Origin: Myxococcales bacterium
GTDB lineage: Bacteria; Myxococcota_A; Polyangia; Haliangiales; Haliangiaceae
Reading direction: 5' to 3'
Assembly (NCBI GenBank): GCA_016794525.1
Contig: JAEUJY010000077.1
Span: 45,091 to 109,090 of the forward strand
DNA length: 64,000 nucleotides
Of the stretch, positions 2,626 to 19,674 are shown piece by piece. Every line of letters starts with the position of its first letter. The stretch's first letter is position 1. Under the pieces are notes generated by a model. The model ran no database searches. It was not told the DNA's origin and worked only from the letters and a program-made list of their open reading frames with translations. The translations under genes were made by a program, and so were the position numbers.

Positions 2626-3393
2626 TCAGCGCCACTGGAACTCGACGCGGCGATCCTTCTCGTCGCCCTGGCCGGTGGGCTCGGTCTCGCCCTTGGGCAC
2701 GACCTGCAGCTTGGCCGGGTCGACGCCGAGGCGCGCCAGGTAGTCGGCGACGGTCTGGGCCCGGCGCTCCGACAGCGCGATGTTGTACTCGTCGGTGCCC
2801 GAGCCGTCGGTGTGGCCCATGACGTAGACCGACTTCTGCGGGGTCTTGCTGATGCACGCGCTGTTGGCGTCGAGGCGGTCGCGCTCGCTGGGCGCGATCG
2901 ACGAGTCGTCGTAGCCGAAGTAGACGGTGGCCAGCGTGCACGCGGCGTCGCCGCCGCCGGCCCACGGCTTCTGGCAGAAGCCGTCGACGCAGTCCTCGTC
3001 GTCGGCGCAGTCCTCGTCGACCTTGCACGCCGTCGGGCGCTGGCAGGCGCCGGCCATGCACTTGCCGCCGGGGCCGCACTCGTTGTCCTTGGCGCAGGCG
3101 CGGCAGGTGCCGGCCTGGCACACCTTGCCGTCCGGGCAGTCGGTGTCCTTGGCGCACTCGGGCTTGGCCACGCAGGCGCCGGCGTCGCAGCGCTGGCCGT
3201 CGGCGCAGTCGCTGTCCTGGGCGCAGGCCACGCACTGCTTCTCGACGCAGACGAGGCCGTTCTTGCAGTCCTCGTTGCCGTCGCAGGCCGGGGTCTTGGG
3301 CTTCTTCTTGGTGCAGGCCGCCACCAGCCCAACCACCAGCACCGAGACGGCCAGGATCGACAACGTGAACCGGAAGCCACCGACGGGACGCAT
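2626..3393 (-). CDS. pal: Peptidoglycan-associated lipoprotein Pal (OmpA-family C-terminal domain) with an N-terminal Cys-rich repeat insert.
   Basis: Lipo-box LVAAC. About seven repeats of DCxxGxxCxxGxC. C-terminal OmpA signature TVYFGYDDSSI ... GHTDGSGTDEYNIALSERRAQTVADYL. Confidence 0.7.
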   Translation of the reverse strand: MRPVGGFRFTLSILAVSVLVVGLVAACTKKKPKTPACDGNEDCKNGLVCVEKQCVACAQDSDCADGQRCDAGACVAKPECAKDTDCPDGKVCQAGTCRACAKDNECGPGGKCMAGACQRPTACKVDEDCADDEDCVDGFCQKPWAGGGDAACTLATVYFGYDDSSIAPSERDRLDANSACISKTPQKSVYVMGHTDGSGTDEYNIALSERRAQTVADYLARLGVDPAKLQVVPKGETEPTGQGDEKDRRVEFQWR

Positions 3394-3488
3394 GGCTGGA
3401 ACCTACGGGCCCGGGCCGGCCGAGTCAAATCTCCGGCGGCGGCGGTCGAACCAGCCTCACGGGGCGGCGTGATAGCCTGACGGCGGCC

Positions 3489-4837
<1,349 letters not shown>

Positions 4838-8778: not shown

Positions 8779-9033
8779 GGCCACAGCGTGCCACACCGCC
8801 GCGCCGCGGGGCAGGTCACGGCGCGGGCGCGCGGCCCTGCCGCCACCAGCGGGTCAGCGTGGCCAGCGCCGCGGCGAGCACGCCGAGGTTGAAGTCGAGC
8901 CGCGTGGTCGTGGGCCAGATCAGCGACGCGCCGACCGCGAGCTGGCGAACAGCCGCCGGCGCGCCCCGAAGACCACCAGCCCCATCACGGCGTCGCGTCG
9001 GAGTCGTGGGCCCCGCCACCGCCACACCATACC

Positions 9034-10783
9034 TCAGCGCTCGGTCGCCGCGCGGCCCCACGGGTGGCGGGCCAGGAGCGCGGCGGCGCGCTCGACCACC
9101 GGCAGCGGCGCGGCGCCGTGCAGCGCGGCGGCCAGCGCCTCGGCGAACTCGGTGGCGTGCTCGAACCGATCGGCGGCGCGCTTGGCCAGCGCCACCGCCA
9201 GCACGGCGTCGACGGCGCGCGGCACGTCGGGCACCAGCGCGCTGGGCGCCTTGGGGTGCTGGTAGACGACCGCGAACAGGAGCTGCGGCGTGTCGACGCC
9301 GGTGAACGCCGGCCGGCCGGTCAGCGCGCGGTAGGTCACCGCGCCCAGCGCGAAGACGTCGGCGCGCGCGTCGACGCCGTGGCCGCGCGCCTGCTCGGGC
9401 GCCATGTAGCCAGGCGTGCCGACCACCGCGGCCTGGGTCAGCGTGCCGCTCGAGCCGGCCAGGCTGGCCACGCCGAAGTCGAGGATCTTCCACGCGCCCA
9501 GGTCGCGCGACCAGAACAGGTTGTGCGGCTTGAGATCGCGGTGCACGACGCCCGCGGCGTGGGCGACGTCGAGGCCGCGCGCGACCTCGCGCACCAGCGT
9601 GATCAGCGCGGCCCGATCGAGCCGCGGCTCGCGGCGCAGCCGACGCGCCAGGTCCTCGCCGTGCAGCCGCTCCATCGCCAGGTACGGCATGTCGCGGATC
9701 AGCCCGGCGTCGAACACCCGGACGATGTGCGGCGACTGCAACGTCGCGATCACCGCGCCCTCGCGCTCGAACCGCTCGCGCAGCCGCGCCTCGTCGGGGC
9801 CGAGCTCGCGCAGGATCTTGACCGCCGCCGCGCGCTGGTCGGTCGCGTGGGTCGCGGCGTAGACCTCGCCCATCGCGCCGCGGCCGATCACCTCGGCCAG
9901 CTGCCACGGCCCGGCGGCGGCGCCGGTGAGCCGGCCCTTGCTGTTGGCGCCGCCGTCGAGGACGTGGTCGAGGTCGCGCTTGACCTCGACCAGCTGCGCC
10001 TCGCGCTGGTTGGCCAGGAGCGCGGCCTCGTGGGCGCGGGTCAGCGCGTGCTCGAGCGTGCGCCGGGACAGCCGCGCCATCCACAGCGCCACCAGCAACA
10101 CCACCGGCACCATCGTCGTGAACATCACGCGGCCCGCGGTCGACGCCGCGCTCGGCGCGATCGCGCCGCGGTCGTCGAGCACGCCGGCCAGCGTCGCCAC
10201 CGCCAGCACCAGGTAGCCGGCGATCGCGACCAGCGGCGCGACCAGCGCGCCGATCCGATCGCGGCCGAGGCCGACGAAGCTGATGCCCAGCGTGACCACC
10301 AGCGACGTCGGCGAGAACACGCCGAGGAACGCGATGATCTCCAGCGACGACGCCGCGATCGCGAACGCGAACGTGCGGAACACCGCCGGCGTGTACCGCG
10401 CGGGGTGGCGACAGCGCCGCACCAGCCAGGCGCCCAGCGCGATCAGCGCCACCAGCGTCGCGACGAACGGCGCCTTGCGGCTGGCGTCGCCGGGCAGCGC
10501 CGGGACGAAGCCCAGCATCGCCAGCGCCATGACGATCATCATCGTCGACCAGCCGCGGGCGCGGTCGACCTCCTCGGCGTGCAGCGCCGCCGCCAGGCCG
10601 TCCTGGGCGTCGCTCGAGGCCGCCGACGGCGGCGTGGTCGGGCGGGGCGGCGCGCGGCGCGGTCGCGCGTCGACGGTCTCGAGGCTCACGCGGTCGAGGT
10701 CGGCGTCGGCGCGCGCCTGCTCGGCCAGCGTGTCGACGTCGTCGCGCACCACCGGCGGCGCCGTGGGGGGCCGCGCGCTCATG
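9034..10783 (-). CDS. Ser/Thr protein kinase with an N-terminal multi-pass membrane domain and C-terminal kinase domain.
   Basis: Kinase motifs GRGAMGEVY, AVK, HRDLKPHNL, DFG, GTPGYMAPE all in the C-terminal half. About six hydrophobic helices in the N-terminal half. Confidence 0.75.
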
Positions 10784-11231
10784 GGGCGATCAGCGCCCGG
10801 CGGTGGCGCCCCGTCAAGCACGGCGCCTTACTTCAGGTAGCGGCCGACCTGGTCGGCCAGCTGGCCGGCGCGCGCGCCGACGTACGAGCCCACCGCCGCC
10901 GGCAGCGCCGGGGCCGCGCGCAGGTGGGCCATGATCGTGCTCGAGCCGCTGGCCAGGTAGCGATCGACCAGCGCGTCGTGGCGCGCGCAGGAGGGCGTCC
11001 GCACGTCGCCGAGGTACGGCATGTCGGCACCCGGGCCGCACCGCCCGAAGCTGGGATCGGGCTCCCCGCCACCCACGACCTAGGTCAGATCGACGAGGGC
11101 GACGGGCTGGAACATCGCCGCCGGCTACTGCATCGCGCGTACCAGCCGCCGGACGCGCCCGGGCGGGCTGCGGTGCCGTCGCGCCGGGGCTGGCCGCGCC
11201 AGGTTGAGGAGGCGGGGCCGCAGGGGGGGGG

Positions 11232-11861
11232 TCAGCTGAACTCGGTCACCGGCACGAGCGGCAGCCCCTCGGCGCAGCCGGCGCAGGTCGCGGCGCCGGG
11301 CGTCAGCTCGCCCCAGCGCGCGACCGTCAGGTGGTGGCCCATCAGGTTGCGGCGGTTGCACCACGCCGCGAAGGTGTCGGCGCCGACCACGGCGAACAGC
11401 AGCACGCCGATCGCCTGCGCGCCGCGCTGCGCGATCAGGTCGAGCATCGGCTCGAGCCCGGCGCCGGTCGAGCCGACGTCGTTGACCAGCACGACCCGAT
11501 CGCCGGCGGCCAGCTCGCCGGTGGCCAGCGTCGCGGTCGGCAGCCGGCGCACGTCGGTCTCGACGACGGCGTGGGCCAGCCCGTGCAGCCGCGCGACGGC
11601 GGCGCCGAGGAAGAACCCGGCCGACTCCGGCGACAGCACCCGCGCGCCCGGCCACCGCCACGTCGCCAGCCCGGCCAGCTGCGCCGCGATCACGGCGAGC
11701 GCGTCGGGGTCGCGGCCGATCGCGCGGAACCGCACCGCGGTGTCGATGTGCAGCTCGCGGCGCAGCGCGAAGTGGCCGTGGAGGATCGCGCCGGTGCGCG
11801 CGATCGCGGCGGCCACCGCGGCGGGGTCGGCGACCGCCGGGTTGATCGCCAGCGCGCTCAT
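11232..11861 (-). CDS. Stand-alone phosphoribosyltransferase (type I PRTase fold, orotate/purine PRTase-like).
   Basis: PRPP-binding motif VVLVNDVGSTGAGL. Its ATG overlaps the stop of the upstream gene (ATGA). Confidence 0.55.
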   Translation of the reverse strand: MSALAINPAVADPAAVAAAIARTGAILHGHFALRRELHIDTAVRFRAIGRDPDALAVIAAQLAGLATWRWPGARVLSPESAGFFLGAAVARLHGLAHAVVETDVRRLPTATLATGELAAGDRVVLVNDVGSTGAGLEPMLDLIAQRGAQAIGVLLFAVVGADTFAAWCNRRNLMGHHLTVARWGELTPGAATCAGCAEGLPLVPVTEFS

Positions 11862-12946
11862 GCGTCGGCCGCGAACAGCGCGTGGATGTCGATCGACTCG
11901 AAGCCGGCCGGCGGGTCGCGATCGGGGCCGGGCGTCACTACCCAGCGCCGGCTCGCGCCCTCGAGCACCGGCCGCTGCTGCCGCACGTCGTCGACCGCGA
12001 GCAGCGGCGACTCGTACAGCACCTGGTACGCGGCGGGCAGCGCGGTGTGCGCGAGGTCGTCGTTGCGCACGACGTGGACGTTGGGCCACGCGCGGCGATC
12101 GACGAGCAGGTCCCACTCGTCGCGGGTGGCGCGCACCAGCAGCGGCAGCTCGCCCGCCAGCGCGGCCAGCCGCGGCAGCGCGAGGTCGTCGCGCAGCGCG
12201 CCGTGCAACGCCGCCTCGAGCTGACGCTGCAGCTCGAGGCCGGTGGCCACGACCGCGTCGTCGGGATCGAGCTGACCCAGCGCGCAGTCGGCGAGCGCGT
12301 CGAGCAGCGCCGCCAGCGCGGTCGGCGCCAGCGCCGGCCCCAGCGTGCGGGCCAGCCGCTGCTCGAGCGCGTGGCGGCTGTCGCGGTGGCGATCGGCGAG
12401 CGTCGCCATGCAGTCGACGACCGCGGCGACGACGCTGCGCACCGGCGCGGTGGCCTCGGGCTCGGCGTGGCGCAGCGCCAGCCGGGCGCGCAGCGTCAAC
12501 CGCCGCGGCCGGCCCCGCCGATCGGCGGCGGTGTCGGCCCGCTCGATGAACCCGGCCTCCTCGAGCGCCTCGAGCACCTTCGACACCGACGACTCGGGAG
12601 CGCCGAGCCGCTGCGCGATCGCGCGCGGCCGCACGACCTCCTGATCGATCGCCTCCAGCGTCTCGAGCCAGTGGCGGCGCGACCGCACCAGGTCGAGATC
12701 GGCGGCGACCTGATCGGTGCGCTCGCGCTCGCGCGCGAACCCGGTGACGACCATCTCGCACGCCGCGGTGAAGCCGCGGTGGAACTCGTCGGTCGCGGCG
12801 CGGCTGACCTGATCGATCTCGCGGCGCAGGGCGGGCAGGGCGGCCGGCGCCTGGGTCGCCAGGAGCCCGCCGATCTCGCGGCCCCCCGCGGCCACGCGGG
12901 CGCGGTCGGTGGAGAGAAGCAGCTTGCGAGCGGTGTCGTACGTCAT
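11858..12946 (-). CDS. Winged-helix (MarR/ArsR-like) domain protein with a large C-terminal domain of unknown function.
   Basis: ATG at 12946 with a GGAG upstream. wHTH segment IAQRLGAPESSVSKVLEALEEAGFIERADTAADRRGRPRRLTL. Coupled to the PRTase gene. Confidence 0.5.
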   Translation of the reverse strand: MTYDTARKLLLSTDRARVAAGGREIGGLLATQAPAALPALRREIDQVSRAATDEFHRGFTAACEMVVTGFARERERTDQVAADLDLVRSRRHWLETLEAIDQEVVRPRAIAQRLGAPESSVSKVLEALEEAGFIERADTAADRRGRPRRLTLRARLALRHAEPEATAPVRSVVAAVVDCMATLADRHRDSRHALEQRLARTLGPALAPTALAALLDALADCALGQLDPDDAVVATGLELQRQLEAALHGALRDDLALPRLAALAGELPLLVRATRDEWDLLVDRRAWPNVHVVRNDDLAHTALPAAYQVLYESPLLAVDDVRQQRPVLEGASRRWVVTPGPDRDPPAGFESIDIHALFAADA

Positions 12947-13007
12947 GGCCAACTCCAGGGACATGAACAGCTTGGGCCCTGGTGTAGCAAAGTGCAAGTA
13001 AAATGCT

Positions 13008-14375
13008 TCAGTCCACCTCGCCCCCTCCGAGATCGAATACAAACACCTTTGGTTCCGAGCATGTACGCTTGGTGACGGGCGGCGCGTCGGGGCGCCGGCT
13101 GCCCGGCCGGCCGAAGATCGCCGCGTGCTCGTCGGTCACCGCCGCGACCAGCGTGAACGCCTGCGGCACGTCGGCCAGGCGCTCGGCCAGCGTCTCGAAC
13201 GGGCGCGTCTTGGGGCTCATCGCCGGCACCAGCACGACGGTCGGCGCCAGCTCCTGCACCAGCGCCGCCACCCGCGCGTCGAGCGCGTCCTTGCAGATCA
13301 GCACCACCACCGCGTTGGCCGCGCTGATCAGCAGGTCGAAGCCCGCGGTCGCGTCGTCGGCGATCAGGTGCTCGTGGCGGCGCACCGCCGGTTCGCCGGG
13401 CGCGTCGCCGGCGTCCTCGAGGTGGAAGTCGGAGAACTTGTCGTGGGTGATCAGCTCGACGCCGCGGGCCAGCACGCGGCAGCGGTTGCGGCCCGGCGTC
13501 GCCGGCGCGGTGGCCTCGTGGAAGCTGCCGAGCGCGACCAGCGGCAGCGGCGCCAGGCGGCCGCTCGTCGTCAGCTCGTCGGCGAGCGCCTGGGTCGCGC
13601 ACAGCTCGGGCAAGACCAGCACGGTGGCCTGGCGCCGCACCGCCTCGTCGATGGCGTCGTGCAGCCGCGCGCGCTGGGCGGCCACGTCGCGCGGCGCGAC
13701 CTCGTAGAACAGCGGGCGGCCGCCGTGGTGGTAGCGCTGCCAGCAGAACTCGTCCTCGACGACGCGGTTGGTGACGGCGGCGGCGAAGCGCCACGCGGGC
13801 GCGACCGGGTCGAGGTGCGGCTCGGCCCAGCGCAGGCCGATGCGGAACCGCGCCACCTCGGGCGGCGCCAGCCGGAGCCGCGGCGTGCGATCGTCGAGCG
13901 GCGTCAGGTTGCCGGGCCGGCTGGTCGGCTGGCCGAGCGCGCGCAGCACCGCCTTCTGGGCCGGCGGCGGCAGCGTCGCGCTGGGGAACGCGATCACCGG
14001 CAGTGGATCGCCGACCTGCACGCGCGGCCGGCCGTCGCGGAAGAAGTCGATGAAGCGATGGCCGGCCCATGCGTCGAGGACGTGGGCGCCGATCAGCGCC
14101 GTCAGCCCCGGGCGCAGCCGGCTGATCGCCAGCGCCGCGGCCAGCCCGCTCAGCGCCTCGGCGTCGACGAACTCGGCGGGCGCCGGCAGCCGGTCCAGCA
14201 CCGCGGCGCGCACGCGATCGCTCTCGGGCGCGAGCGCCGCGTCGCGGAAGTCGGCGCTGGTCGCCGCCGGCGTGGCGTTGGCGACCCGCAGCAGCGCCGC
14301 GGTGACGTCGACGACGTGGGCCAGCTCGTCGAGCACGCACGGCATCAACGCAGCCCACCACCCGGCTTCGTCCAT
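13008..14375 (-). CDS. Protein with a C-terminal carbon-nitrogen-hydrolase (nitrilase superfamily)-like domain; N-terminal ~190 aa unknown.
   Basis: Internal ATG at about 14375 (MDEAGWW); the ORF-track N-terminus is an Arg-rich artefact. Candidate Glu/Lys/Cys motifs LVLPEL, HDKFSDF, VVLICKD. Confidence 0.4.
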   Translation of the reverse strand: MDEAGWWAALMPCVLDELAHVVDVTAALLRVANATPAATSADFRDAALAPESDRVRAAVLDRLPAPAEFVDAEALSGLAAALAISRLRPGLTALIGAHVLDAWAGHRFIDFFRDGRPRVQVGDPLPVIAFPSATLPPPAQKAVLRALGQPTSRPGNLTPLDDRTPRLRLAPPEVARFRIGLRWAEPHLDPVAPAWRFAAAVTNRVVEDEFCWQRYHHGGRPLFYEVAPRDVAAQRARLHDAIDEAVRRQATVLVLPELCATQALADELTTSGRLAPLPLVALGSFHEATAPATPGRNRCRVLARGVELITHDKFSDFHLEDAGDAPGEPAVRRHEHLIADDATAGFDLLISAANAVVVLICKDALDARVAALVQELAPTVVLVPAMSPKTRPFETLAERLADVPQAFTLVAAVTDEHAAIFGRPGSRRPDAPPVTKRTCSEPKVFVFDLGGGEVD

Positions 14376-14431
14376 CGCGCGATTGTACGATCGTCGCCGC
14401 GCCGGCGCGGTCACCCCGCCGGGGTGGGCGC

Positions 14432-15526
14432 TCAGAACAGCCGGGCCAGCACGTCGCCGGCGCGGGTGGCCTGGCCGCGCACCGCGCCCAGCGCGTCGAG
14501 CGCGCCGCGCACGTCGGACGCGCCGGCCAGCGCCCGGTCGAGCGCCTCGCGGCGCGGCTGCGAGATCGCGATCAGCTCGCAGCGCGCGTGGCCCTGCGCG
14601 GTGCAGCGCACCTCGCGCATCGCCAGCGGGCGGCCGGCGGCGTGGGCCAGGAGCGCGCGCACCACGCCGCCCAGCAGCTGGCAGCGCGGCTCGCTGCTGG
14701 CGCCCGACGCCTCGGCCAGCGCCGAGCGCTCGATCGTGATCAGCGCGACGCCGCGCGCGACCGCGGCCGGGCTGGTGACGTCGATGCGCACCTGGCCCCA
14801 GCCGTCCTGCTCGAGGTACTGGTGGATGAGGCCGATCGCCTCGTCGATCGGCAAGTCGGGCAGGCGCGTGTCGCGGGTCTCGAGCAGCTCGGCGTCGATG
14901 TCGATCGCCGCCAGCCGCCCCCAGCGCAGGCCCCACTCGCTCGCGAACAGGCTCCAGCCTTGGGGCGCGATCTTGTCCCAGGTCAGCCGCAGCGCGCGCA
15001 GCGCGGCGACCGGCAGCACGACGACGCGCTGCTCGCCGTCGTCGCGGCGGATGCCCAGCGCCTCCTCGCCCGGCACCAGCTCGGCCTGACGCGGCGCCGC
15101 GACGTCGGCGAACGCCGGCCGCGGCGGCCGGAACTTGAGGCGGTTGATGCAGACGTAGAACCGGCGCGGATCGGTGGAGCGCACCAGCTCGACCTCGACC
15201 TCCTGCGCGCCGAACTTGAAGTCGAACACGTAGGGGAAGCTGACCCGCGGTACGGCGCTGGTCGTGAACTGCAGGAACCGCCCCTTGAACTCAGGCGTCG
15301 CCGTGCACGGCGCGATGTCGCGGAAGAACGCGCGGCCCAGCACCTTGCTGCGATCGAGCCGCGCCAGCCGCGCCTCGGCCAGGTTGTAGCGGAGGATCGT
15401 GCCGCTCGCGTCCAGGCAGATCACCCCGAACGGCAGCTCGTCCAGCGCCGCGTCGTCGTAGCGATCGAGGGTGGCGAGATCGACGTTGCCGTCGTTCAGC
15501 GCCAGGGGCGGAGGCTCGGTCAGCAC
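14432..15526 (-). CDS. Photoactive yellow protein (PYP) domain fused to a C-terminal V4R domain; candidate blue-light photoreceptor.
   Basis: Residues ~25-130 align to PYP: LDELPFGVICLDASGTILRYNLAEA ... GRAFFRDIAPCTATPEFKGRF, with Tyr42, Glu46 and the chromophore-binding Cys69 (APC) conserved. C-terminus carries V4R signature SEPRCQLLGGVVRALL ... MREVRCTAQGHARCELIAI. Confidence 0.8.
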   Translation of the reverse strand: MLTEPPPLALNDGNVDLATLDRYDDAALDELPFGVICLDASGTILRYNLAEARLARLDRSKVLGRAFFRDIAPCTATPEFKGRFLQFTTSAVPRVSFPYVFDFKFGAQEVEVELVRSTDPRRFYVCINRLKFRPPRPAFADVAAPRQAELVPGEEALGIRRDDGEQRVVVLPVAALRALRLTWDKIAPQGWSLFASEWGLRWGRLAAIDIDAELLETRDTRLPDLPIDEAIGLIHQYLEQDGWGQVRIDVTSPAAVARGVALITIERSALAEASGASSEPRCQLLGGVVRALLAHAAGRPLAMREVRCTAQGHARCELIAISQPRREALDRALAGASDVRGALDALGAVRGQATRAGDVLARLF

Positions 15527-15557
15527 GCCGGCTTCGACGCTCGCGAGGCGAGGCGGG

Positions 15558-18329
<2,772 letters not shown>

Positions 18330-18501
18330 GGTAGCCCGCGGGCCGCACGCGCGTGTGTCACCCGTGCGGTGACAGTTGACACCGGATTGGCGACACCACG
18401 CGCGCGCCGGGTAAGCTCGCCGCGCCGACTGGTGGCCGCAGCCTTGCAGTGTCCAGGACCGAGTGAAGATCGCACGCCGACTCGCACAGGGAGCACCTCG
18501 C

Positions 18502-19674
18502 ATGCCAGCACGTCTCATTACGCGGGGAGCCGCGCTCAGCGCAGCCCTCGCGTCCACCGTTCTCGGGCTTCGCAGCGTCGAGGCCGCATGCAACAACTAC
18601 CGCTGCGGTAGCAACACGCCGATCCTCTGGGGGACCTTCGTTCGCGGGCTCAGCACTACCGGCGAGGCCAACGCCGAGCGGGTCGTGCTGCGGCCGGAGC
18701 TGATCCCGTCGGGCACCGGCACCTGCACCGGCACCGACATCAAGCTCACCTCGGTCGATGGGCGACTCATGGGCGTGCGCGACAAGGTCGAGGTGTGCGC
18801 CGACGCGGCGCTGGTCGGGTCCGCGTTCGACATGGACGTGCCGTACAAGGCGCTGACCATGCGCGTGCGCGTGCGCATCTCGGAGATCAAGACGGTGTCG
18901 ACCTGGGAGGTCGAGGGCGCGGTGGTGTTGCCGACGTATCGCTTCGAGGTCATCGCCAACGGCGCGATCGCGGCGCCGGGCGAGCCGCCACCCGACGGCG
19001 CGCGGCCGTTCGGGCCGGTGACGCCGTCGCCGCTGTGCCAGGAGACGCCGGGCTGGATGGAGGAGTGGCAGACCGACGGGCTGGTGCCGGTGCCGGTCGG
19101 CCCCACCGTCGGGTTCCTGCGCTACGAGAACCCCGAGGGCACCGTCGGCCAGCAGTGGCAGGTCGGCACCGACCACGCGCTGATCGTCAGCGGCGAGACG
19201 TACACCGAGACCGGCTCGTCGGCGGCGATCGGGCCGCAGTGGTTCCAGATCGCGTGCGCTGGCTCGGCGATCGCCAAGATGCGGCTGCTCGGCATCGATC
19301 CCTGGGAGTCGCGCGCCGTCGCGGGCGGGCTCACGACCGCGACGCTGAAGATGCTGGGCGCCCGCTACGGCGGCGACGTCGCGTTCACCAGGCCCGGCAT
19401 GGCGGTGCGCTGGGAGCGCTGGGACGCGCGGCGCTTCTACGGCGGGCCCGCGCGCGACCTCGCGCCCGGGCCGTCGGAGGCGACGTGGACCCGCAGCGGC
19501 GCGGCGTGCGTCGATCACCTGCGGCTGATGCGGGCGAGCCTCGGCGGCCGCTGGCTGACCTGGGTCGAGGGCATCGCGCTGGTGTCGCTGGCACGCGAGT
19601 ACCGCCTACGCCCGTGCCCCACTACCGCCCGCGCGGTGTGGACGACCACGACGGTCGATCACGTCGCGCACTGA
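18502..19674 (+). CDS. Secreted hypothetical protein.
   Basis: ATG at 18502 with AGGGAG upstream. Signal peptide MPARLITRGAALSAALASTVLGLRSVEAA. Confidence 0.5.
   Translation: MPARLITRGAALSAALASTVLGLRSVEAACNNYRCGSNTPILWGTFVRGLSTTGEANAERVVLRPELIPSGTGTCTGTDIKLTSVDGRLMGVRDKVEVCADAALVGSAFDMDVPYKALTMRVRVRISEIKTVSTWEVEGAVVLPTYRFEVIANGAIAAPGEPPPDGARPFGPVTPSPLCQETPGWMEEWQTDGLVPVPVGPTVGFLRYENPEGTVGQQWQVGTDHALIVSGETYTETGSSAAIGPQWFQIACAGSAIAKMRLLGIDPWESRAVAGGLTTATLKMLGARYGGDVAFTRPGMAVRWERWDARRFYGGPARDLAPGPSEATWTRSGAACVDHLRLMRASLGGRWLTWVEGIALVSLAREYRLRPCPTTARAVWTTTTVDHVAH

Follow-up and report, generated by a model that had tools for sequence, protein, structure and literature searches.

The three consecutive minus-strand genes examined here, which we call g1, g2 and g3, lie in a stretch of 64,000 nucleotides (the window; contig JAEUJY010000077.1, positions 45,091 to 109,090) from a Myxococcales bacterium. 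They encode a nitrilase-superfamily protein of 455 amino acids (g1, 14375..13008), a protein of 362 amino acids with a MarR-type winged helix (g2, 12946..11858) and a type I phosphoribosyltransferase (PRTase) of 209 amino acids that resembles orotate PRTases (g3, 11861..11232). We tentatively favour, as a possibility, the reading that the trio is a self-contained and vertically inherited module restricted to the Polyangia, in which an amidase and a PRTase, linked to nucleotides or to phosphoribosyl pyrophosphate (PRPP), go together with a coupled DNA-binding partner and are organized in two expression units. In this reading the cassette does not serve as an output of the photoactive yellow protein (PYP) photoreceptor encoded beside it, nor is it co-regulated with that gene.

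In the proposed mechanism, g1, with a -10 element of its own directly before the start codon, would be transcribed as a first unit, and g2 and g3, translationally coupled, would form a second unit preceded by an AT-rich, promoter- or operator-like element in the g1-g2 spacer. Nitrilase-superfamily enzymes convert amides and nitriles to carboxylates, and the substrate of orotate PRTase (OPRT) is a carboxylated base. The g1 product would act on a small molecule, heterocyclic or nucleotide-linked, and hydrolyse its amide or nitrile group to the carboxylate with release of ammonia. The base so formed would be joined to PRPP by g3, or g3 would at the least bind PRPP; its closest known relatives phosphoribosylate a carboxylated base. 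The g2 protein, made in a fixed ratio with g3, would bind the spacer element and thereby tie expression to the PRPP or nucleotide state. Such wiring can be likened to that of Bacillus PurR, where wHTH (winged helix-turn-helix) and PRTase are joined in one polypeptide; the Bacillus subtilis protein binds PRPP and ppGpp (PMC9304144).

Conservation and inheritance of the cassette

Single-sequence searches returned 16 clusters for g1 and 5 for g2, and a profile search with g3 returned about 90, named as Kofleriaceae, Myxococcales, Polyangiales, Sandaracinaceae or 'Deltaproteobacteria' metagenome-assembled genomes (MAGs). The order g1-g2-g3 was found in every locus with enough flanking sequence, in about 17 distinct lineages and at 26-96% identity. 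With a divergent Sandaracinaceae version included, all carriers are Polyangia-class Myxococcota (Kofleriaceae, Haliangiaceae UBA2376, Polyangiales and Sandaracinaceae). A scan of a genome collection with one peptide pattern returned 5 loci and is unsuited to prevalence estimates. An earlier note on this DNA had proposed neighbourhood analysis as a check on the linkage among the three genes; the order kept across these lineages bears that linkage out and supports a functional link among the three. The coding regions of g2 and g3 overlap (by ATGA, GTGA or TGATG) in nearly all distinct loci, the exceptions being L019-21, with a 9-nt gap, and L040, with a 26-nt gap (related loci are designated here by L numbers). 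In the window, the overlap read from the sequence is ATGA (11858..11861, minus strand), which suggests translational coupling.

In a second clade of cassettes, group B, 9 loci from 7 distinct lineages share the same PilT-like ATPase gene 0-3 kb upstream. The identity of the trio compared with that of this neighbour was 93-96% versus 89% in L028, 70-80% versus 74% in L031 and 58-63% versus 71% in L012. The codon usage of the trio is native, scans of viral contigs with the g1 and g3 profiles detected no homologues, and a plasmid search with g3 likewise returned none. Stable synteny, neighbour-like divergence, native codons and the lack of phage-contig and plasmid homologues in these searches together fit vertical inheritance under purifying selection, and speak for a settled role in the cell more than for a mobile one. 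Judged from these loci, the pattern does not fit the patchy, mobile one that is typical of defence systems.

This distribution bears on a rival reading that we consider unlikely, in which the trio is an anti-phage or toxin-antitoxin-like module lacking a reverse transcriptase (RT). According to it, g3 would be an effector that depletes PRPP or poisons nucleotides, g2 an autoregulating DNA-binding sensor or antitoxin, and g1 a second effector of the nitrilase type, by analogy with the PRTase/wHTH pair of type III-A retrons, with ShosTA and with the nitrilase domains of DRT1/UG5. The domain repertoire consists of modules that are reused in defence systems. In type III-A retrons the PRTase is accompanied by a wHTH protein, encoded separately or fused to it (PMC7736814), and the Eco11 PRTase depletes PRPP (PMC12746101). 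Fusions of RT and nitrilase are known (PMC8632793, PMC9226505), and both ShosTA/PsyrTA and Ophion have PRTases as toxins (10.1101/2025.09.30.679545). The layout of g2, upstream of g3 and overlapping it, also resembles type II antitoxin-toxin pairs, and the wider flanks vary among the major lineages. However, a family that stays within a single bacterial class, keeps its synteny and diverges at the pace of its neighbour is not what would be expected of a patchy, horizontally spread and fast-evolving system; neither phage-contig homologues of g1 or g3 nor a plasmid homologue of g3 were found, and the surroundings consist for the most part of kinase, regulator and metabolic genes and not of defence islands. 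No RVT family was present among the called genes of the loci with gene tables, and Rfam gave no credible RNA family in window 9000-17000, so that on both counts neither an RT nor a noncoding RNA (ncRNA) accompanies the cassette. With the retron PRTase motif Gx14PNNxP also missing (0 of 99 sequences), a retron was rejected as an identity for the trio. The statements of the earlier note that no RT is present and that the combination is not a known housekeeping pathway both stand.

As a separate observation, one lineage, L008, has a DprA-like/LDcluster4 (SLOG-type) gene beside a ResIII/DEAD helicase gene (L008:1-3054), upstream of the trio at a distance of about 5 kb. This pair resembles DprA-helicase conflict or repair modules, and its proximity to the trio is probably coincidental.

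Expression signals

Returning to the amidase and PRTase module, its division into two units is suggested by signals at both ends of g1. A -10-like hexamer, TACAAT (14387..14382, minus strand), lies 6 nt before the g1 ATG and is a candidate promoter. Each of the 14 distinct loci compared has a TAnnnT hexamer 6-13 nt before the g1 start codon, and in 9 the distance is exactly 6 nt; as TAnnnT has a background frequency of 0.0006 per nt here, the expectation per locus is about 0.6%. The hexamer looks like a candidate -10 element of a leaderless or short-leader g1 mRNA. A generic scan for sigma-70 promoters and terminators found nothing, at g1 because no -35 match is present.

The 61-nt spacer between g1 and g2 (12947..13007, minus strand) is conserved and, at 52-54% GC, stands out as the region's sole low-GC stretch (the window has about 74% GC and this region about 75%). 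It contains the AT-rich element ATTTTACTTGCAC (13004..12992), conserved in L022, L019 and L001, a possible promoter, TTGCAC-N17-CAAGCT (12997..12969), and the ribosome-binding site GGAG before g2 (12956..12953), all on the minus strand. In the window clade the spacer has ATTTTACTTGCAC, followed 17 nt on by CAAGCT or CATCCT, and the GGAG site. Nine group-B loci (L009, L010, L012, L017, L028, L031, L033, L034 and L035) have a different, equally conserved spacer element, GGAATTAnnTTGTTGACGGTAACGTAAAC...CCACACTG, within which an imperfect 18-bp palindrome, GTTGACGGTAACGTAAAC, is conserved in all nine aligned sequences. The group-B element could be a promoter of the extracytoplasmic function (ECF) sigma type (GGAAT-N17-CGTAA) or an operator formed by the 18-bp imperfect palindrome. 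More generally, we infer that the spacer may hold an internal promoter and/or a candidate operator for the g2 winged helix. The g1 -10 element and the promoter- or operator-like spacer element point to a 1+2 anatomy (g1; g2-g3) and not to one unit hanging from the PYP gene. Thus, the tightly coupled three-gene operon of the earlier note survives in part: the coupling of g2 and g3 is kept across loci, whereas g1 has its own -10 element and is followed by a promoter- or operator-like spacer. The note had also counted ATGA overlaps at the last two gene pairs, of which only g2/g3 has one (11861..11858); the gaps are 56 nt between the PYP gene and g1 and 61 nt between g1 and g2.

The palindrome also bears on a third reading, namely that g2 and g3 together are a split, PurR-like transcription factor in which g3 senses PRPP, a nucleotide or (p)ppGpp, with g1 as a neighbouring target. 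An operator-like imperfect palindrome in nine group-B spacers, the highly conserved basic wing of the wHTH and the PurR precedent of a wHTH joined to a PRTase domain (PMC9304144) would all be in keeping with it. However, the spacer element lies downstream of g1, the g1 promoter is separate and shares no motif with it, and the reading leaves unexplained why g1 never parts from g2-g3. For these reasons, together with those from the g3 protein given below, we regard it as quite unlikely.

Folding of the hairpin after the PYP stop codon, and of the region after g3, was no better than that of shuffled sequence. Two repeats were seen upstream of g1 in other loci: a (GGGATC)n tandem repeat directly upstream of the g1 promoter (L019:~760-870) and a GGGTTC/GGCCTC-type repeat in the stretch around the PilT-like ATPase gene (L016:~1900-2150).

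Gene calls and neighbouring genes

The PYP gene, g1, g2 and g3 are four successive minus-strand open reading frames (ORFs) with a GC content of 0.95-0.99 at third codon positions (GC3) and of about 0.5 at second positions, which in such a genome indicates real genes; the three cassette genes each have conserved homologues, and their GC3 matches that of flanking genuine genes. The genes and coordinates given by the earlier note were therefore correct. In GenBank the window proteins are MBL8623121/20/19 of a 'Myxococcales bacterium' MAG, annotated as hypothetical protein, MarR family regulator and hypothetical protein. Just 3' of g3 there is also a minus-strand ORF of 82 codons (10828..11076) with coding-like GC3 (about 1.0 in frame). 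It has no Pfam match and no counterpart at any related locus, and the latter ruled it out as a member of the cassette.

The gene upstream of g1 (15526..14432, minus strand) is a neighbour only and lies outside the cassette. It encodes a 364-residue fusion of PYP with a V4R domain (TIGR02373, 2.8e-30; V4R, 7.4e-11), and keeps the motifs YNxAE and FFxDxAPCT, which we match to Tyr42, Glu46 and Cys69 in the PYP of Halorhodospira. The fusion is conserved in relatives at 79-93% identity, with a varying position among the neighbouring genes. It is co-directional with g1 and ends 56 nt before it in the window and in L022, and in three related lineages it stays no more than about 7 kb away from the trio. 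These observations would suit an output module under light control, transcribed together with the PYP gene and linked to it in function, along the lines that the earlier note had considered. We now hold that idea to be very improbable. Only the window and its nearest relative, L022, have the PYP gene immediately upstream of g1, and the L022 trio proteins are 88-94% identical to ours (g3, 94%). In L019-21 and L023 (g1 85% identical) it is found 5.4 kb downstream of g3 with three genes between, and in L001/L002 (61-72% identical) it begins 4.7 kb downstream of g3 and 6.5 kb past the end of g1; in L019-21 and L001/L002 it is 3-8 genes away, downstream of the trio. At the more distant loci it was not found within the fetched flanks. 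The g1 -10 element, moreover, is kept whatever gene adjoins upstream.

An STK-TPR kinase gene and an opposite-strand ADYC-domain gene also lie near the trio in the window clade (window 15558-19674; L001:4042-7854). In the relatives that retain PYP, the order of the STK-TPR, ADYC and PYP genes differs by genome, which indicates local reshuffling around an intact cassette. Since the position of the PYP gene shifts while the trio moves as a block, their adjacency is better seen as residual synteny without functional linkage, and the position of the trio beside the PYP gene as incidental. The earlier note had named a lack of conserved linkage with the PYP gene as a point of refutation; such linkage is missing, and as far as gene neighbourhoods can tell the light-regulated reading is essentially refuted.

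The g1 protein and its actinobacterial relatives

The domain calls of the earlier note (CN-hydrolase-like, wHTH, PRTase) were right, the first on fold and catalytic residues and not on Pfam. The profile annotation that it had proposed for the 455-residue protein gave a mixed outcome: g1 scores 12.9 bits against CN_hydrolase PF00795, under the gathering threshold of 23.2, and yet it has the four-layer alpha-beta-beta-alpha sandwich of the nitrilase fold and the catalytic residues. Glu257, Lys313, Glu335 and Cys361 are invariant across 15 homologues, and Glu257, Lys313 and Cys361 remain so when the Sandaracinaceae and actinobacterial relatives are included. Their codons lie at 13607..13605 (Glu257), 13439..13437 (Lys313) and 13295..13293 (Cys361) on the minus strand, Glu335 being the second glutamate. 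Thus, g1 is a nitrilase-superfamily amidase or hydrolase with an intact predicted active site. The catalytic domain is preceded by an extension of about 215 residues, helical over residues ~1-115 (a bundle) and extended over ~115-215. A search of the PDB gave no sequence match to g1, and the N-terminal ~215 residues matched no solved structure; the extension is confined to the g1 family and its actinobacterial NUDIX-fused relatives. The sole above-noise profile match outside Pfam was to the PADLOC CARF-nitrilase model, at a marginal 5.9e-4; it would speak for a defence module, against which PADLOC gave no match to g1 of other family members.

A tblastn search of plasmids with g1 detected proteins of 650-730 amino acids in Rhodococcus, Mycolicibacterium and Streptomyces, of which there are chromosomal copies too. 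They are full-length homologues of g1, at 27-32% identity, in which both the N-terminal extension and the catalytic residues (Glu, Lys and Cys) are retained, and they carry in addition a C-terminal NUDIX domain whose best family match is coenzyme A (CoA) pyrophosphatase (NF007980, 7.9e-26). The Rhodococcus relative passes PF00795 (25.0 versus 23.2 bits). Two of the three fusions contain LLTERAxDLRDYPGxxxFPGG, which presumably represents the PROSITE CoA-Nudix signature. The fusion genes (L041:7815-9755 in Rhodococcus, L042:6545-8725 in Streptomyces and L043:6638-8761 in Mycolicibacterium) stand alone, without g2 or g3, in regions of heavy-metal resistance or stress on large plasmids and chromosomes, and such single genes in stress or metal regions are a further point against a defence role. 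With a PRTase partner in the Polyangia and a NUDIX partner in the Actinobacteria, the g1-type nitrilase has been repeatedly paired with a phosphoribosyl- or nucleotide-handling enzyme, and the CoA-pyrophosphatase-type fusion would favour a nucleotide- or cofactor-linked substrate for g1. We weighed NAD/NMN deamidation, pantetheine-type amides and 7-deazapurine nitrile or amide chemistry as candidates for one substrate common to the PRTase- and NUDIX-linked forms; such a common substrate was rejected, as the candidates rest on nothing beyond analogy.

The g2 protein

For the 362-residue protein, profile annotation confirmed the MarR-type wHTH that had been called: g2 matches MarR_2 at 1.2e-08 (35.4 bits against a cut-off of 27), as do 10 of 10 family members, and in a profile search of the PDB it matches MarR-family regulators exclusively, over positions 73-210. 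The protein may be divided into an N-terminal helical region (~1-90), the wHTH (~90-150; 12679..12497, minus strand), with a strongly conserved basic wing, and a C-terminal region (160-362; 12469..11861, minus strand). An exhaustive phmmer search of 1.84 billion proteins gave 18 representatives of the C-terminal domain of about 200 residues, 14 of them full-length proteins of 362-382 amino acids with identical architecture and 4 shorter fragments, so this domain appears to be private to the g2 family. An AlphaFold2 model of g2 had a predicted local distance difference test (pLDDT) score of 53, with five eligible, closely related sequences, and was too poor for a fold search. Profile-profile comparison of g2 with g1 and with g3 showed no relationship. 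As for winged helices of PRTase-linked systems, the PRTase-associated wHTH family PF24409 gave 16.7 bits on g2, below the cut-off of 27 (best of 10 members, 6e-4), the PADLOC PRTase_III-A model touches only the wHTH of g2 (7e-4), and DprA_WH cross-matches were weak, in 2 of 10 members, g2 having no DprA domain.

The g3 protein

The g3 protein is, from its profile matches, a type I PRTase closest to the Thermus-type and archaeal orotate PRTases. It matches TIGR01367 (Thermus-type OPRT) at 3.8e-07 with 29.9 bits, far under the cut-off of 150.25, and OPRTs lead its profile matches in the PDB (4paw, 7e-10; 2yzk, 1.2e-08). A housekeeping PyrE was rejected as its identity, given a score far under the equivalog cut-off and the location of the gene in the cassette. 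The PRPP loop VVLVNDVGSTG (residues 123-133; 11495..11463, minus strand) belongs to a pattern, VVLVNDV(G/A/V)(S/T)TG, that is invariant in the g3 family, although 87 of 99 sequences have Asn where the first acidic residue would be expected; a C-terminal CxxC (Cys193/Cys196; 11285..11274, minus strand) is present in 90 of the 99. In alignments, the Lys/Ser-Gly substrate motif and the catalytic-loop Lys of OPRT are both replaced.

The loop Asn and the missing catalytic-loop Lys could be taken as signs of the sensor that a split PurR-like factor would need. However, the PurR model TIGR01743 scores just 0.07 on g3, and in retron Eco11 PRPP is consumed even with a non-acidic residue first in the loop (PMC12746101). 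The same likeness (VVILTDTIGSG in Eco11, VVLVNDVGSTG in g3, neither with the first acidic residue) lends something to a defence effector, for which PADLOC is again blank, none of its models matching g3.

Two further occurrences of g3-like proteins were observed. In L026 (1927-2574) a lone PRTase, 46% identical to g3 and with the VNDV loop and CxxC, follows a Kup-type potassium transporter gene, and neither g1 nor g2 was detectable beside it; it is possibly the remnant of a cassette, or else a PRTase of this kind used on its own. In L039 (4341-6582) and L038 (~2800-3660) a g3-clade PRTase, 33-39% identical to g3 and with the loop VVLVNDVVTTG and the C-terminal CxxC, lies directly 3' of the gene for a 528-residue ThiF/E1-like protein whose best PADLOC match is BilD (5.4e-13); in L039 a serine recombinase gene is found a few kb upstream. 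The pair may be a separate mobile two-gene system.

Assessment of the proposed function

Several points weigh against our tentative reading of an amidase and PRTase module. A complex of g2 and g3 is one that we infer from translational coupling only. The replaced OPRT motif and catalytic Lys, with the loop Asn, mean that g3 could be a ligand sensor and not an enzyme. The PRTase partner and the CoA-type NUDIX partner of g1 suggest no obvious shared substrate, and the N-terminal extension of g1 and the C-terminal domain of g2 are, as far as the searches reach, without known relatives. Moreover, nitrilase, PRTase and wHTH modules all recur in phage defence (PMC7736814, PMC9226505, PMC12746101), and a PRTase of the g3 clade occurs with a BilD-like E1 protein beside a recombinase in L039, which also adds to the case for a defence module.

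Taking these points in the other direction, the cassette could be an RT-independent PRTase/wHTH/nitrilase system of the Polyangia for stress or phage response, a view to which we give little credence. The wHTH protein would keep the OPRT-like PRTase inactive until a trigger arrives, upon which PRTase and nitrilase would jointly make or destroy a nucleotide-like metabolite, through depletion of PRPP or as a modified nucleotide signal. The trio would then be a free-standing ancestor or analogue of the type III-A retron effector pair, related in logic to the L039 pair of PRTase and E1-like protein.

If the cassette serves to make or salvage a nucleotide-like compound, as in the reading that we favour, it would represent a new amidase-plus-PRTase route and a new wiring of a PRTase to a DNA-binding protein; if it is defence- or toxin-antitoxin-like, it would show that the PRTase/wHTH effector pair known from retrons can act without an RT. 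Either way, there is now a first handle on two protein domains without relatives elsewhere, which are linked to the uncharacterised nitrilase-NUDIX family of Rhodococcus, Mycolicibacterium and Streptomyces, and the tempting but wrong inference that the trio is a PYP photoreceptor output is removed. The carriers are poorly studied, mostly uncultured myxobacteria.

Comparison with known systems

Among known systems, the type III-A retron module (Retron-Eco11) shares with the cassette the pairing of a PRTase-like protein and a winged helix, the coupled genes and the non-acidic residue before the loop Asp. The cassette differs in that it has no RT, no msr/msd RNA, no Gx14PNNxP motif and no PADLOC PRTase_III-A match on g3, and in having the wHTH gene upstream, two private extra regions in g2, an obligate nitrilase gene and a vertical, Polyangia-only distribution. 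ShosTA/PsyrTA, with a PRTase toxin and a DprA-like antitoxin, likewise has a PRTase beside a winged-helix protein in a coupled two-gene layout; in the cassette g3 lacks a PADLOC match and g2 a DprA domain, the gene order is another and there is a third gene. The PurR of B. subtilis shares the winged helix and the type I PRTase fold, and with them a plausible link between DNA binding and PRPP or nucleotides. In the cassette, however, the two are separate polypeptides, g3 is OPRT-like and not PurR- or XPRT-like, g2 has a private C-terminal domain of 200 residues and there is a nitrilase partner.

At the level of the single proteins, Thermus-type OPRT (TIGR01367; 4paw, 2yzk) is the best match of g3 over about 140 residues, including the hood and the PRPP loop, but its loop reads V[DE]D where that of g3 reads VNDV, g3 has an extra C-terminal CxxC tail, and OPRT is encoded among pyr genes whereas g3 is found in the cassette. 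MarR-family regulators are compact proteins of about 140-180 amino acids whose terminal helices form the dimer interface, whereas g2 has 362 and extra regions on both sides of the wHTH. The nitrilase-superfamily amidases compared (Nit2, NitFhit, Nesterenkonia amidase, D-carbamoylase, the glutaminase domain of NAD synthetase and vanin) are just 10-20% identical to g1, which in the window is set apart from them by its sub-threshold Pfam score and its N-terminal extension of about 215 residues. The 'NUDIX domain-containing protein' of actinobacteria (WP_342338994.1, from plasmid pDK1 of Rhodococcus sp. DK17), itself uncharacterised, shares the full length of g1 and its catalytic residues; proteins of this type differ in their C-terminal NUDIX domain and in that their genes stand alone, g2 and g3 being absent from the vicinity. 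The combination of the three genes was not found in Pfam, NCBIfam, PADLOC or the literature searched, and the cassette is nevertheless built from known superfamilies in a recognisable style, that of enzymes with a winged-helix partner.

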